Shown here piece after piece: positions 1 through 18,605 of a stretch of 18,605 bases of DNA. Source of the DNA: Candidatus Micrarchaeota archaeon (GTDB taxonomy: Archaea; Micrarchaeota; Micrarchaeia; Anstonellales; Bilamarchaeaceae); the NCBI GenBank assembly GCA_043821365.1, contig JBDRCX010000004.1:1-18605 (forward strand). The letters are read 5' to 3'. The position numbers and the translations under genes were made by a program. Under the pieces are notes generated by a model. That model searched no databases and was not told the DNA's origin. It was given only the letters and a program-made list of their open reading frames with translations. Within the stretch, counting starts at the first letter, position 1. Each line of letters begins with the position of its first letter.

Positions 1-997
<997 letters not shown>

Positions 998-1244
998 TAA
1001 TCTCAGTTGATCGTGCATTCTAAACACGAATTTGGTACGATAATTTTATATCTAATTTCCTTATAGAAATTGACATTGCACGGATCATTTACTCTTGAAG
1101 CATGAGTCAAATCTATAAGTAATAGATTTCCACATTTAATGACAAATTTTTTGTAAGATTTGTCAGAAGAGAAATACAATTTCCCTTAGATGACACATTC
1201 TGTGGCATTGAATTGCACTGAATGCGCAGAGGATATATAGCGAT

Positions 1245-1265
1245 GAACCTATTTATAAAGCTTTC
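1245..1265 (-). promoter_or_regulatory. 16S rRNA promoter (BRE + TATA)
   Basis: Minus strand reads GAAAGC-TTTATAAATA-GGTTC, about 250 nt upstream of the mature 16S, and matches the 23S promoter at 17/21 positions. Confidence 0.75.
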
Positions 1266-1368
1266 GTCTTATCCTCAGTAAAACTCAGATAAATTTACTT
1301 AATTGATAATTTAGGTTAAAACCACAAAATAACCAAAGTAATTAAAATAAACGCCATGGGTTAACATT

Positions 1369-1965
1369 ATGGACGATGATAAAATAGTCCTTGATCGTAA
1401 AAGTTTCGAAGCACTTGCAGTTGATAGTAGAGTACGAATTTTGAAATCATTAGAAAAAAGAAGAAAAACACTTTCTGAATTAGCTAAAGAACAAAAAATG
1501 TCAATCTCAGGTGTTAAGGAACACCTTGAAACACTTGAGAATGTTGGGCTAATTGAAAAAATTGATGATGGTCACAAATGGAAATATTATGAGCTAACAA
1601 GAAAAGGAAGGGAGATAGTTGCACCAAAAGAAATACGTGTTTGGATCTTACTTATCATATCCATGTTTGCTCTAGTTATTTCATTGAATAGCATGATCTC
1701 AATGCAAGAAGTACAAACTGCAGATGAACCAATCAGAGCATATGATGAACAATTTATGGTAGCTAGCACATTTGACAATAATACTGAAAATCTTGCTTTG
1801 AATACCGGCGTACAAAGTAAAACAACAAACAAAACAGAAATAGTACAAGATGATATTCCAGAACACACAGGTTTAGTAGAGATAATTATATGGATAAGTT
1901 CTTTGACAATGTTTGGTTGTATAATAGTTTTGATAAAGAACCGACTGAATCTTACCCCCAAATAA
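1369..1965 (+). CDS. Membrane-anchored ArsR-type winged-HTH transcription regulator
   Basis: Residues 1-85 follow the ArsR/wHTH pattern (ALAVDSRVRILKSL...TLSELAKE...VKEHLETLENVGLI...KWKYYELT), followed by a TM helix (VWILLIISMFALVISL), a polar loop and a C-terminal TM helix. Confidence 0.85.
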   Translation: MDDDKIVLDRKSFEALAVDSRVRILKSLEKRRKTLSELAKEQKMSISGVKEHLETLENVGLIEKIDDGHKWKYYELTRKGREIVAPKEIRVWILLIISMFALVISLNSMISMQEVQTADEPIRAYDEQFMVASTFDNNTENLALNTGVQSKTTNKTEIVQDDIPEHTGLVEIIIWISSLTMFGCIIVLIKNRLNLTPK

Positions 1966-1979
1966 TATCAATACTTTTT

Positions 1980-2009
1980 TAAAGTATATTACATAAATAA
2001 TCACTAATA
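1980..2009 (+). promoter_or_regulatory. Shared upstream motif TAAAGT-N16-CACTAATA (copy 1)
   Basis: Same two blocks with identical 16-nt spacing as at 8798-8769 upstream of the other orphan gene; the spacer is TATA-like. Confidence 0.5.
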
Positions 2010-2028
2010 GAAACAATCTGGTGTGGGG

Positions 2029-3144
2029 ATGGGTACTTTAAAACGACTTGAATTTAAAAAAGTAGATGTTGATCCATCAGCCTTAGCCAAACAAATTAGT
2101 GCTAAGTATTTACCATGTGGAACAGACAGGATAATTGATGAAATAACCAGAACTCACACAAGAAATATTGCAGTTTCTCATCCTGAAAAATTTGCTAGAC
2201 AACACGCGCTTAGGAAGTTGAAACATGATCATAAAACTTTAATAGACGTCATACTAACTTCTGAATTCGAAGATACTGTTTCTGAAGCCAAAGGATATAT
2301 TATGGAATTGGTAGAGCACATAAAGGATCCAAAAACATTATTTTTCATTAGTAGTTTAGGAGTAACAGATGCAGATAAAGTAATAATTGCAAGGTATATG
2401 GCAGTTCTTGAACCACGAGACACTGAGATGTTACGTTTCATTGTCCTAAATGCTGAAAATAGAGTGGTAATAGAAAATACCATATTGGCAATTAGAAACC
2501 TTGGACAATACGATGTTATTGCAGACATAAATGCAAATGCAAAATTTTTAGCAGAATATAGTGAAACTGGTTTTGATACATTTACCTATGATTTTACATT
2601 AACAGTATTAGAAGCAAATATTGATTCAATTACATCAGAAACAGCATTAATTGCAATTGTAAATGAAACAAAGAACCAACCATTACGAAGAATTGCAGCA
2701 GCAAAATTAGCAGATATGGTAGATGTATCAGATGAAATAAATCTTTTTGCAAATGCTAATCTTGAACTGTTGATTTGTGTTGTTCTTTACCATGTCCATG
2801 ATAAAAAATGGGAACACACAGTTGGGATATTGTCAACTATATGGGCGGATACCATATTAGAACGTCTAGAAACAGAGATGCCACCAGATTATATGAGTGC
2901 TTTGTGTTTGGCTTGTTATTCAGACGACCCAGAACATAGGAAAACAGCATACAATGCATTGCCATTAACTTATGCAGAAGAAGTTGCTATTAGAAGTAAA
3001 TACTTAGATAGTGCAACAACAGCACTAGATAGATTTGATCCAGAACGAGATACTCCGACTCTCAGAAGAATCTCAGAGCAAGCAACAATAGCAAGTATAC
3101 GTGAAATGGCACTTGAAAAGTGGTTTTTTACTGCTGGTTTTTAA
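2029..3144 (+). CDS. Hypothetical protein, predicted largely alpha-helical
   Basis: Long uninterrupted ORF (track start GTG 2023, ATG at 2029) with no recognisable catalytic motif; overlaps the 3' end of sufU tail-to-tail by 17 nt. Confidence 0.8.
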   Translation: MGTLKRLEFKKVDVDPSALAKQISAKYLPCGTDRIIDEITRTHTRNIAVSHPEKFARQHALRKLKHDHKTLIDVILTSEFEDTVSEAKGYIMELVEHIKDPKTLFFISSLGVTDADKVIIARYMAVLEPRDTEMLRFIVLNAENRVVIENTILAIRNLGQYDVIADINANAKFLAEYSETGFDTFTYDFTLTVLEANIDSITSETALIAIVNETKNQPLRRIAAAKLADMVDVSDEINLFANANLELLICVVLYHVHDKKWEHTVGILSTIWADTILERLETEMPPDYMSALCLACYSDDPEHRKTAYNALPLTYAEEVAIRSKYLDSATTALDRFDPERDTPTLRRISEQATIASIREMALEKWFFTAGF

Positions 3145-3511
3145 CAATAATCTTTATTGCATCAAAAGGTAAAAGAGCGCATTTTAATCTTGAAGGATTT
3201 TTACTAAGATCAATTTTCAATAAATGTAGTATGTCTTCTTTTTTGATCTGTTTTAATACACTGAATTTTTTACCTTTTAAATATTCAGTAAATAGGGATG
3301 TGCTTGCCTGACTGATGGCACAACCAGAACCAACAAATTTTACATCACTTATTTTTCCATTTTCTACTTTTAAAAATAATTCTATTTGATCTCCACAAGT
3401 TGCATTATGGATTTTAGTTTGGTAATTTGAGTTTTTTATTTTACCAAAATTCAACGGATTTTTGTAAAGTTCAATAATAAATTCCTGATAAATATCTTCC
3501 AGATCAAACAC
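3128..3511 (-). CDS. sufU: SufU/IscU-family Fe-S scaffold / sulfur-transfer protein
   Basis: NATCGD, GCAISQAS and RLKCALL supply the three conserved Cys plus Asp. Start uncertain (GTG 3511 or CTG 3502). Confidence 0.92.
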   Translation of the reverse strand: MFDLEDIYQEFIIELYKNPLNFGKIKNSNYQTKIHNATCGDQIELFLKVENGKISDVKFVGSGCAISQASTSLFTEYLKGKKFSVLKQIKKEDILHLLKIDLSKNPSRLKCALLPFDAIKIIVKNQQ

Positions 3512-3836
3512 CCACAAGACCATCTATTATTGATGGTGCTAAAAAGTATAAACCAAATCCAATAAGACCACCTAAAAATGCCAGTAAACCAACTAAACCA
3601 CAGAGAATAATCCCAATTTTGATTATTGTTTGTGCAGTTTTAACAAAAAAATGTACAACTGCCGCAATTGCCAGAAGTAAAAGACCCAAACCAAACAAAA
3701 GTACTGAACCAAAAAGCATGGTACTCCTAGTAGTTTCTTCTAGGTTTTCAATTGCACCTTTTATGTTAGATGATGACGATACTGCCAGGACTGTACCGAA
3801 TAATAGAATAACCACAAACAAATATTTTATTTCCAT
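3504..3836 (-). CDS. Small membrane protein, TrbC/VirB2-like pilin candidate (110 aa)
   Basis: N-terminal signal-like hydrophobic segment (YLFVVILLFGTVLA), an amphipathic helix, then two Gly-rich TM helices ending IGFGLYFLAPSIIDGL. ATG 3836 follows a GGTGA SD that overlaps the sufS stop. The pilin assignment is from pattern recall only. Confidence 0.6.
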   Translation of the reverse strand: MEIKYLFVVILLFGTVLAVSSSSNIKGAIENLEETTRSTMLFGSVLLFGLGLLLLAIAAVVHFFVKTAQTIIKIGIILCGLVGLLAFLGGLIGFGLYFLAPSIIDGLVGV

Positions 3837-14904: not shown

Positions 14905-15245
14905 TCCGCACTAACTTTTCGATGAGAACCTATACTCTAAGGTTCGATGAAAACAACAAGTTAGAGTTTTATATGTCTCTCCGATTTTCGGAGAATTTCA
15001 TGCGTGTGAAGTAACGACAAGTTGTTGTTTGTTTTTTTCTATTAAGATTCGCTTCGGCGAATTTTGTGGAATTGAACAAACAAAGGAGATAGTATCATAC
15101 GATAAAATGTTAGATACTTCAATATCTCTGGATTTTATTTGCGACAAGTTTCTTTTAGAAATTTTAGCAAATGAAGTGAAAAACTTAGTAATTAAGTAGT
15201 GTCATATATGCTGGTTTGTGTTGTCGCTTAGGCGATGATACAAAC
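14905..15245 (+). other. Structured 5' leader of pre-23S rRNA
   Basis: Non-coding, with tandem hairpins (GAACCT/AGGTTC, TCTCCGA/TCGGAGA, ATTCGC-TTCG-GCGAAT, and a 14-bp stem at 15214-15245). Confidence 0.6.
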
Positions 15246-16865
15246 AACTATACGCCATTTAGTGGATGGCTTGGCTTGTGCCCGCACAGTCACGCGGCAA
15301 GCGGCGAAACGCCATGGGTAGACGCACGCAGTCTTTGATCCATGGGTTTGACTGAGCACAGTAATGTGCAACAACCCCTTGAAATGAAGCATCTTAGTAA
15401 AGGGTGGAAAAGAAAGCAATGCGATCTGGTTAGTAACAGCGAGTGAAAGCCAGTTAGATCAAACCGAATTCCATCAGGGTAACCTGGTGGTAGATGTGGT
15501 GGGGAGTATCCTTTGTTTGAGTCGAAGTCCGTTGGAACACGGTACCTTAGCGAGTAACAGTCTCGTAGACGAAGGCCAGAGGAACGATCCAAGAAGAGTA
15601 GTGCCCGTTGGATAACGGACATGAACATGGGAGTATCAACTTCTAAATCTAAATATGGGGCGCAAGACCGATAGCGAATCAGTAGCGCGAGCGAACGCTG
15701 AAAAGCACTGCGGGAGCAGTGTGAAAAGAACCTGAAATTAAATGGTTACAGAATGGCAAGGCATAAAAGCGTAGGTTTGTGGAAGCGAATTTGGGTAACT
15801 GAATAAGCGACATGAATTAAGCAGTGTCTTGTCTTTCTTCTCGAAGCAAGAACCAGGGAGTTATTTGATGTGGCGAGACGAGAGTCAAAGCGAAAGCAAG
15901 TGTACGCAGCCCGCAAGGGTAAGGTACGTCGTGGTAATTCGCGATTAGTCACATTGAGTAGACCCGAAGCCATAGTGAGCTACGCCCGAGCAGGATGAAG
16001 CCAATCTGACGATTGGTGGAGGTCCGCAACTAGTGATGGTATATTCCTCTTAGGTGACTTGGGTGTAGGGGTGATAGTCCTGTCGAACATGGCGATAGCG
16101 GGTTCCCTCTGAAATGTCTCTCAGGACAGCGTCTCTGGAGAATGATATAGCGGTAGAGCACTGATCAGGTGGATTGGCTCCGAGAGGGGTCGCCATCTCC
16201 TCAAACTCCGAATGTTATATCTTCGTAGAAGGAGGCAGTCGGGGCGCCGGAGTAAGTCTGGTGTCCCTTACGGGAACGACCGTACGTGAGGCTAAGGGCC
16301 CTAAATGCTAGTTAAGTGTTAATCTGGAAGGAGTTTCTATTCGAAAACAACCGGGAGGTAGGCTTAGAAGCAGCCACCCTTCAAACAACGCGTAATAGCG
16401 GACCGGTCTAGAGTACAGATTCTGAAAATTCACGGGACTAAGCTAGCTTCCGATACCTCACCAATGTAAAAAACATTTGAGTAAGGGGGCGAACGGGTTG
16501 CCTAGAAGCACGGTGGTGACATCGTGTGGAGCGGCCTGTTATGAATATCCTGGTGTAAGTAGCAGCATATCCGGATGAGAATTCCGGACACCTTATAGAG
16601 CAAGGATTCCTCAGCCACGTTCTTCAGCTGAGGGTTAGGCGATCCTAAGGGCCATGGTAACTCCTGAAGCCCGAAATTAGGGAAACTGGTTAATATTCCA
16701 GTCCTATGAAGATAGGTTGCCGCAAGGCGCGCCACATTCTTGACGCTTTTGGATAGGTTGAACATCTTCGGATGTCTGAAGAGGGTAAATTCGCGGAGTC
16801 TTATTGTGAGGAGAAGCGAACGAATCTCGTAGGGGTAACTCGATCAAGTCCAGGGGCCCATGAAA

Positions 16866-16920
16866 GAAACTTTTTGGAAAAAGTTTCATCAAAAACTGAC
16901 CAAAAAGGGTCCATGATAAA
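16866..16920 (+). other. ~55-nt AU-rich insertion in 23S domain III (near E. coli 1570)
   Basis: Removing it restores GGGGCCCATGAAAAG, matching the archaeal GGGGCCCGTGAAAAG pattern. It contains hairpins GAAACTTTT-TGGA-AAAAGTTTC and GACC-N6-GGTC. Boundaries may slip within A runs. Confidence 0.7.
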
Positions 16921-17234
16921 AGATGTGGAACGATTCTTCATAATCGTACCTAGAACCAGTACAGGTGCTCTAGCTGAATAGGCTAAGGTGTGATAGGACA
17001 ACCTAGGTAAGGGAACTCGGCAAAATAGCCCTGTAACTTAGGAAGAAGGGGTGCCATAGCATGAGTAATGTTGTGGTTTCAATAACAAGGGGAGTGCGAC
17101 TGTTTACCAAAAACACAGATCATCGCAGAGCCGAAAGGCTGAGTATGATGGTTGACGTCTGCTCACTGCTAGTACCTGAATATCGGGTTCAACCGGAAGA
17201 AGGGCTAGTAAAGAGCGGGGGTAACTCTGACCCT

Positions 17235-17929
17235 CGACAAAGAGGGGGTCGCAATAAATCTCGCTATATGCTGGAAACCCTAACCGTTTAAAACGGGGAA
17301 GAATACAGATACCGAGCAGGTGAAAATTCTGTTATTCAATTGGGCAATCAGCAGGAAACTAAGGAGGTGGTTTTATGGAATTGAGTAAAATTCCTAAAGA
17401 AAGATACCTCAAATACTATATTGCTGGTTTTGTTGATGGTGAAGGTTGTTTCAGTGTTTCGTTAAAAAAACAAGAAACAACAAGATTCGGATGGGTATTG
17501 GATCCGATTTTTCATGTAACTCAACATAAAAATAGCATAGAAGTACTCGATCTAATAGAGAAGGTACTTAGATGCGGAAGAGTTATAGAAAAACACGGAC
17601 AAAAAGATACCTGTCAGTTCTTAGTAGATAACCGAAGACAACTAAGTGAGAAGATCATTCCTTTTTTTGACAATTATTTGATTGTGAAGAAAAAGGATTT
17701 CAAGATTTTCAAACGAATTGTCCAAGGTTTAGAAAACAAAGAACATACAAAACCAGATAGCTTCCTTGAGCTTGTGAAGCTTGCTTTCTTAATGAATAAT
17801 GAAGGAAAGCAACGCAAATATACATTCAAAGAAGTAGAAAATAGTATAAAAGGATCCTCAGAGACTACACGCGAGACACCAAAAGGTGATGATATAGTCC
17901 AATCCGTACAGTAATGTGCGATACGATTG
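17235..17929 (+). mobile_element. Group I self-splicing intron at 23S position 1923 (695 nt)
   Basis: Exons rejoin to GACCCT|CTTAAGGTAGCG. The 5' exon ends in U paired with G of the IGS (GGGGGTC, P1) and the intron ends in G. Core elements P (ATGCTGGAAA), Q (AATCAGCAGG), R (TCAGAGACTACA) and S (GATATAGTCC) are present, with P3 TCTCGC/GCGAGA, P7 GACTA/TAGTC and P9 GTACA-GTAA-TGTGC. Confidence 0.96.
17375..17914 (+). CDS. Intron-encoded single-motif LAGLIDADG homing endonuclease
   Basis: YIAGFVDGEGCFSV motif, FHVTQ, GRV and IIPFFD typical of the I-CreI/I-CeuI-type fold; strong SD AAGGAGGT upstream; frame intact. Confidence 0.95.
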   Translation: MELSKIPKERYLKYYIAGFVDGEGCFSVSLKKQETTRFGWVLDPIFHVTQHKNSIEVLDLIEKVLRCGRVIEKHGQKDTCQFLVDNRRQLSEKIIPFFDNYLIVKKKDFKIFKRIVQGLENKEHTKPDSFLELVKLAFLMNNEGKQRKYTFKEVENSIKGSSETTRETPKGDDIVQSVQ

Positions 17930-18605
17930 CTTAAGGTAGCGTAATACCTCGCCGCTTAATTGGCGGCTTGCATGAATGACGTAACGTCACTCCCACTGTC
18001 CCTACTTAGGACCTAGTGAAATCACTGGCCAGTGAAGATGCTGGCAACTTCCAGAGGGAAACGAAGACTCCATGGAGCTTTACTATAGTCTGATGTTGTG
18101 GTACGAGATATACTACCAAGCGTAAGTGGGAGCCGTTATGTTGCAGCTTCTGGGTTGCAAATAGGCGAAAGTGTTACACCACTTAGTATATATTGTATCG
18201 CTTACTCGAAAGAGAACAGCGTCAGGTGGATAGTTTGGCTGGGGCGGTACGCCCTCGATAAGGAAACAAGGGCGCCCAATGCTTTGCTCATTCCGGTCAG
18301 AAATCGGAAGTAGAGGGTTAAAGACAAATGCAAGGCTGACTGTATTTTTAAAAGCGTAGAATGCAGAGACGAAAGTCGGGCTTAACGAACCTTGAAATCC
18401 CTTTGATGAGGATTCAAGCTGTCAGACAAGCTACCCTGGAGGTAACAGGCTCGTCGCGGGTGAGAGTACACATCGACCCCGCGGTTTGGTACATCGCTGT
18501 CGGCTTGGGACATCCTGGTCGTGTAGGAGCGGCCAAGGGTTGGGTTGTTCATCCATTAAAGTCCCACATGAGCTGGGTTCAGTACGTCGCGAGACAGTAC
18601 GGTAG

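Follow-up and report, generated by a model that had tools for sequence, protein, structure and literature searches.

A group I intron, probably mobile and of the IB4 type, at LSU/1923 in the 23S rRNA gene of a Micrarchaeota archaeon

The window analysed here, a stretch of 18,605 nt, is contig C4 in the genome of a Micrarchaeota archaeon (DPANN), a 1.2-Mb assembly of six contigs that is 87% complete. According to Rfam, a divergent 16S rRNA gene occupies positions 1-997 and an archaeal 23S rRNA gene positions 15238-18605 (LSU_rRNA_archaea, 1963.6 bits), the latter cut by the contig end. This 23S gene, the sole 23S locus in the assembly, is interrupted: its sequence reads ...GGGGGUAACUCUGACCCU up to 17234 and resumes with CUUAAGGUAGCGUAAUACCU at 17930, leaving an insert of 695 nt at 17235-17929, and the Rfam 23S alignment places 700 inserted nucleotides here against 5 in the model. 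The insertion point directly follows the U that corresponds to E. coli U1923, at the 3′ end of helix 69. All features located below are on the forward strand. As a separate matter, the contig ends inside the 23S gene at about E. coli 2611, with its final two bases off consensus (window 18594-18605); the assembly also lacks the remaining 23S sequence (model positions 2707-2987) and the 3′ part of the 16S past model position 934. Further introns at the contig breaks are possible, and a study of CPR bacteria has a 23S insertion site at 2604 on its list (PMC11270868).

The boundaries of the insert carry an ambiguity of one base, a C opening both the intron and the 3′ exon, which is settled because the homologues L008 and L010 open the intron with U, and by the rule that such introns lie between U and G. 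These homologues come from a search with the intron's protein across 401 genomes of the phylum, which returned 14 close loci (55-73% identity) plus a distant set (27-37%). All 13 close loci in which both junctions are readable have the insert at the identical junction, after U and ending in G. The same U1923 junction is found in locus L012, whose coordinates and length are identical to those of the published LSU/1923 intron IB4.18. An initial sequence-only reading had placed the insert at 17235-17929, and both the Rfam 23S alignment and the homologue junctions make these positions exact to the base.

Rfam, homologue alignment and covariation all point to a group I intron of 695 nt at LSU/1923 (17235-17929). 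Its helices were assigned by hand as 62 pairs and mapped on an alignment of 14 Micrarchaeota introns. The 5′ exon strand of P1, GACCCU (17229-17234), is the 3′ strand of helix 69 and ends in U1923; it pairs with positions 17245-17250 of the internal guide (17242-17250), which consists of GAG, the P10 partner of the first bases of the 3′ exon (CUU, 17930-17932), followed by GGGGUC, the 3′ strand of P1. The 5′ strand of P3, UCUCGC (17259-17264), pairs with GCGAGA at 17871-17876. The P4-P5 domain (17269-17353) comprises P4 (UGCUG/CAGCA, 17269-17273/17349-17353), P5 (17278-17280/17342-17344) and, by hand assignment, a P5a hairpin (17284-17296) and P5b/c (17301-17337). P6 is formed by GGA (17354-17356) and UCC (17855-17857), with an endonuclease gene in the loop between the strands. 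The 3′ half of the core (17863-17899) holds the 5′ strand of P7 (GACUA, 17863-17867), the P3 partner strand, the P8 hairpin (CACC/GGUG, 17877-17888), J8/7 and the 3′ strand of P7 (UAGUC, 17895-17899). P9.0 (17901-17928; AAUC 17901-17904 with GAUU 17925-17928) encloses the P9 hairpin (17906-17919), in which GUACA/UGUGC is closed by a GUAA loop. Position 17929 is the terminal guanosine (omega-G), a G in 14 of 14 homologues and in both of the ORF-less introns described below. The core is compact: P2 is absent, P8 has only 4 bp and P6 has 3 bp.

Comparison across the 14 introns gives this fold substantial backing. The 62 pairs are 89.4% paired, a figure that falls to 34-45% once the 3′ partners are shifted by 1-3 columns, and both sides change in 34 of the 62; on four of five measures none of 500 shuffles reached the observed values, and on the remaining one, further pair types, a single shuffle did so (1/500). 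P1 is 94% paired and three of its six pairs change on both sides together with changes in the host exon. For example, C-G is replaced by U-A at two P1 positions in L007 and L008, tracking the exon, and in L012 and L013 a differently paired helix 69 stem is matched by an altered guide (GAGACU opposite GGGUCU). P3 and P7 are both 100% paired, with changes on both sides in five of six P3 pairs and two compensatory pairs in P7. Covariation is likewise seen in all four P8 pairs and all nine P5b pairs, and both-side changes occur in three of four P9.0 pairs and all five P9 pairs. P4 is invariant in 14 of 14 and P6 is 93% paired, neither showing covariation; these two helices are therefore uninformative either way. 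The elements first read from the sequence are all present, namely the U·G at the 5′ splice site (14/14), the terminal G, the core and the GAG/CUU P10. P10 is the weakest helix, at 83% paired, with 10-11 of the 14 rows paired at its two informative positions and no pair changed on both sides across the 14 introns.

In a scan of the window at gathering level, Rfam reported the rRNAs but not the intron, the cut-off of Intron_gpI (RF00028) being 50 bits. With relaxed thresholds, the same model matches in two pieces: 17269-17418, covering P4-P6 (20.8 bits, E 0.0075), and 17781-17921, covering P7, P3′, P8, P7′ and P9 (29.3 bits, E 2.2e-5). The window's intron thus falls below the cut-off because its ORF splits the match. 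Two genomes of the same genus, G409 and G236, contain ORF-less introns of 254 and 251 nt at the same junction and with the same core, including the GUAA L9 loop, and these match RF00028 over its full length with 80.3 and 77.5 bits, above the cut-off. By comparative sequence evidence, then, the insert is a genuine group I intron, with a fold supported by covariation and ORF-less siblings in the Rfam family. It is probably of the IB4 type, an assignment made by homology along its whole length to L012, that is, IB4.18.

The endonuclease gene (17375-17914) encodes 179 amino acids with a single LAGLIDADG motif, YIAGFVDGEG, and matches Pfam PF00961 (LAGLIDADG_1) over residues 16-115 with 77.5 bits against a cut-off of 23.1 (E 1.6e-21). 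A Shine-Dalgarno-like GGAGGUG (17363-17369), read from the sequence, lies 5 nt 5′ of the ATG; no other ORF of the window has a stronger one, and GAGGUG-like sequences occur in most homologues. The form D[GA]EG of the motif is kept in 12 of 14 homologues, with D[SG]EG in L012 and L013. Among single-motif proteins of known structure, the best relative is I-Vdi141I (3e54; E 3.9e-26), followed by I-CeuI (2ex5; E 4.4e-23). The ORF is intact in all 12 homologues tabulated. Against 13 homologues, dN is 0.18-0.39 and dS is saturated; dN/dS, computable in two pairs only, is about 0.08-0.10. This low ratio implies that selection maintains the gene, and the sequence comparisons suggest that this selection is purifying.

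Comparison with the ORF-less introns, which have a 30-nt hairpin instead, identifies the gene as an insertion in L6. Its reading frame continues through P6′, P7, P3′, P8 and P7′, and its stop codon, UAA at 17912-17914, lies in the GUAA tetraloop of L9. Because the frame runs on into the core, the last ~20 residues (GSSETTRETPKGDDIVQSVQ) are dictated by the ribozyme sequence; they are encoded by its conserved part and lie outside the region that aligns to solved structures. The frame stops earlier in homologues whose P8 loops are longer, and the tail therefore looks like read-through with no functional domain. Intron ORFs that reach into the core have been described before (Hausner et al., 2014; PMC3984707).

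The distribution of the intron is patchy. Orthologues at 55-73% identity were found in only about 15 of the 401 genomes, and within the genus 25 of 40 genomes contain the relevant 23S stretch. In 17 of these 25 the site is uninterrupted and the exons abut, as was read directly in G288. The intron with its endonuclease gene is present in two, the window's genome and G144 (79% identity over the match), and the ORF-less intron in another two, G409 and G236. Of the remaining four, three have other inserts nearby and one is unclassified. As a sequence survey, this is the pattern expected from a homing cycle in which an intron invades, loses its endonuclease gene and finally disappears. The claim that had started this work, that L1923 holds a complete group I intron which is apparently mobile, is accordingly borne out by covariation, by ORF-less siblings in Rfam, by an endonuclease gene under apparent selection and by this patchy distribution.

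Two peripheral helices are unevenly spread among these introns. P5a (17284-17296) occurs in the window's intron and in the ORF-less introns of the genus (L105:371-624; L106:369-619) and in none of the 13 other endonuclease-bearing introns, and a P2 hairpin is found in the ORF-less introns of the genus and in L003, not in the window's intron. Such a distribution hints at recombination between intron variants. The helix 69-71 stretch of the genus also holds other inserts, seen in L108 (G164:C25:33880-34780), L109 (G109:C9:8050-9500) and L110 (G303:C1:16350-17625). After GGGGGUAAU (about E. coli 1915) there is an insert of 45 nt in G164 and one of about 640 nt with a LAGLIDADG ORF in G109, and G303 has a further ORF-bearing insert after GGCGGCUU. 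Relatives in the genus additionally have an insert of ~30 nt inside CUUAA/GGUAG and one of ~170 nt with a long terminal stem, resembling a bulge-helix-bulge (BHB) structure, inside GCGUAA/UACCU. From these varied inserts it follows that several intron types stand side by side in a short region of the 23S gene.

Taken together, the locus very probably holds a mobile IB4-type LSU/1923 group I intron in the single 23S gene of a Micrarchaeota archaeon. In the proposed mechanism, the guide would pair with the end of helix 69, and the resulting P1 would place the U·G wobble at the cut site. The P3-P9 core would then fold, and an external guanosine would attack after U1923. With P9.0 and P10 holding it in place, the exon end so released would in turn attack after the terminal G at 17929, and helix 69 would be rejoined. 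On this model splicing is autocatalytic. The 179-aa protein, presumably acting as a homodimer, would cut intron-less 23S genes around position 1923, whereupon repair would copy the intron in. Its activity and target are predictions, and cleavage of the intron-less allele is what we infer from the apparent selection on the gene and from the coexistence of empty and occupied sites within the genus.

Maturase activity occurs in some LAGLIDADG proteins encoded by organelle introns, and the most serious alternative starts from this role: the core would be real but would not splice unaided in the cell, requiring a protein helper such as the LAGLIDADG protein itself. The trimmed core described above, with its missing P2 and short P8 and P6, is compatible with such dependence, as is the passage of the ORF through the core, which means that translation and folding must separate in time, a situation of the kind described in the literature (PMC3984707). 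However, G409 and G236 retain, at the same site, ORF-less introns with the same core and a full RF00028 match; the core can therefore apparently be removed without an intron-encoded protein, and this leaves dependence on a helper a slim chance.

Much less probable is that the insert is a BHB intron, cut by EndA and joined by RtcB in the manner of the classic crenarchaeal rRNA introns that carry endonuclease genes. Introns in archaeal rRNA are usually of this type, BHB-like mini-inserts lie nearby in relatives of the genus, and I-Vdi141I, the best single-motif structural relative of the endonuclease, stems from an archaeal 23S rRNA intron. Nevertheless, when 50 nt around each junction were folded together, only the P1 and P9 hairpins formed and no BHB, and the covariation-backed group I fold and the Rfam matches of the ORF-less relatives speak against this origin. 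Equally improbable is an assembly or binning artefact in which a foreign intron was joined to the rRNA of this genome: chimeras arise easily in the rRNA regions of metagenome bins and this contig starts and ends inside rRNA genes, yet the guide fits the exon of this host, the closest homologues come from the same family and genus, and an independently assembled 864-nt contig in DNA run X1, which may be the source sample, spans 17096-17959 and both junctions on its own, with zero differences and no joint that skips the intron.

The autocatalytic group I intron favoured here can further be set against public read data, comprising a groundwater metatranscriptome (X2) and the DNA runs X1 and X4; uncovered stretches in X1, X3 and X4, and the runs X5-X20 with their small word shares, were not counted as evidence. 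X2 holds 78% of the sampled words. Its exon contigs with zero differences reach depths of 629-3561, and four of these six contigs carry the alleles of this organism where G288, the nearest intron-less relative, differs. Positions that separate the two include T17181, A17197 and A17198, at which G288 has A, G and G. The intron itself is covered by one 696-nt contig at a depth of 16.7, which also extends across the 3′ junction, so that intron depth in X2 is about 1-3% of exon depth. A joint 17234>17930, skipping exactly the 695 nt, occurs in X2 at a depth of 13050. Its shorter side measures only 22 letters, in sequence identical across the genus, and DNA run X4 has the same joint at a depth of 6.58, against 3.2 for the intron. 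The X4 joint implies that intron-less DNA exists in these communities; together with the short shared side, it indicates that intron-less relatives or strains contribute, and the X2 joint is therefore not assignable to this organism. Sequence lacking the intron, which the sequence-only reading had proposed looking for in the population, is present in the X4 DNA. The X2 depths and joint are as efficient splicing would produce them and suggest splicing, short of proof.

Several other features of these runs deserve mention. Further joints in X2 (16967>17930, 17233>17929, 17233>17930, 17235>17933 and 17976>18055) were rejected as products of other organisms or errors, on account of short sides and low depth, or of letters between the sides. 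The X2 intron contig differs by a G>T at 17444 and by one extra A in the A-run after 17463 (17463-17469), which would shift the frame of the endonuclease; it may stem from a strain in which the gene is broken, or be an error in the homopolymer. In addition, a 24.6-kb contig in X1 (depth 256), and similar ones in X3 and X4, share only the 18-nt motifs 17263-17280 and 17855-17872, about 600 nt apart. A related group I intron, differing in its insert, is thus present in another member of the community.

The relationship of the intron to those of other domains was also considered. Among the matches listed, relatives at 35-53% identity reside in introns at the L1923 junction in Bathyarchaeota, Hadarchaeum and Nanoarchaeota and in bacteria, the latter including Acidimicrobiia, Acidobacteriota, CPR groups, Omnitrophota MAGs and others, and distant Micrarchaeota matches (31-37% identity) are located at L1931. 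With the L1931 endonucleases as outgroup, a 52-row tree unites all 19 archaeal L1923 endonucleases in one starred clade (95/88), the successive sister branches of which are bacterial. A tree in which the bacteria are kept together is not rejected (AU p = 0.08); a direction from bacteria to archaea is therefore suggested by the rooted tree and not established. Since all archaeal copies group together, with 35-49% identity to the bacterial ones, a single old transfer suffices, as does an ancient split. Of the cross-domain traffic proposed at the outset, what stands is a lineage also present in many bacterial L1923 introns. From these sequences, the endonuclease lineage is common to Bacteria and Archaea through a link that looks old, with nothing pointing to recent traffic. 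In the same tree, two bacterial L1923 endonucleases, L037 and L038, are almost identical (branch lengths 0 and 0.0065) and come from MAGs labelled Acidimicrobiaceae and Spirochaetaceae, which points to misbinning or else to a very recent transfer.

A bolder account would combine a single entry into Archaea from Bacteria, active turnover at present within one genus, through gain of the intron and loss of either its endonuclease gene or the whole element, and X2 as the first in vivo evidence for removal of a group I intron from archaeal rRNA. This combination is tentative, and we consider it doubtful as a whole.

As to novelty, the initial reading was right that knowledge of archaeal group I introns comes chiefly from covariance-model searches, as a literature search found no splicing experiment on any of them, but it overrated the find. 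Nawrocki, Jones and Eddy (2018; PMC6125680) reported 39 archaeal group I introns, and Table 1 of that study contains at least eight of type IB4 at LSU/1923 (IB4.7,.9,.11,.13,.17,.18,.20 and.21), in hosts from the Micrarchaeota, Pacearchaeota, Thaumarchaeota and Aigarchaeota. Three of these (IB4.17,.18 and.20) are from Micrarchaeota, and one is part of the present alignment: L012 (G306:C56:9750-10442, minus strand, 693 nt) has the coordinates of IB4.18 (MNVH01000001.1 10442-9750), and the window's intron is therefore homologous to a published intron. G306 is a relative of the same class, and the annotation of its contig as Micrarchaeota in the 2018 study fits the placement of the window's genome. 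The two agree in site, phylum, size class and LAGLIDADG ORF, they align over the whole intron with every helix in common, and their endonucleases are 56% identical. They differ in host genus and in sequence, and the window's intron has P5a and no P2. This kind of intron has accordingly been published for this site and phylum since 2018, and the find is correct but ordinary. The 2018 study treated LSU/1923 without covariation analysis, population survey or RNA data (PMC6125680). The value of the present locus lies in a covariation-supported fold for the Micrarchaeota L1923 family, in one genus with every stage of the homing cycle represented, in a public metatranscriptome in which in vivo splicing of an archaeal group I intron is testable from raw reads, and in a candidate endonuclease whose target would be an archaeal version of the I-CeuI site.

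That position 1923 is the site of I-CeuI was recognised correctly from the start: the target of this enzyme is n.1923 of the LSU gene, and its source is the chloroplast intron Ce.LSU.5 of Chlamydomonas eugametos (PMC3315327). I-CeuI shares with the protein described here the rRNA site and the single-motif, homodimer-type LAGLIDADG architecture, with a similarity confined to residues 11-115. Its target differs at about 7 positions, the archaeal site reading TAACTCTGACCCT/CTTAAGGTAGCGTA and that of I-CeuI TAACTATAACGGT/CCTAAGGTAGCGAA. The putative link to chloroplasts would consist only of a shared site and family-level similarity to I-CeuI. I-Vdi141I, likewise a single-motif enzyme, aligns with 95 bits over residues 8-154 of the 179. 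Its host intron is presumably of the protein-spliced archaeal type, unlike the group I ribozyme described here. The enzyme comes from a 23S rRNA intron of Vulcanisaeta distributa and targets the helix 69 region of the rDNA (PMC2602781). Finally, bacterial L1923 group I introns, for which the rRNA insertions of CPR bacteria provide a comparison (PMC11270868), share the site, the U...G boundaries, a guide that fits the host exon and the endonuclease lineage; they differ in their bacterial exon context and in lying outside the separate clade of archaeal endonucleases.
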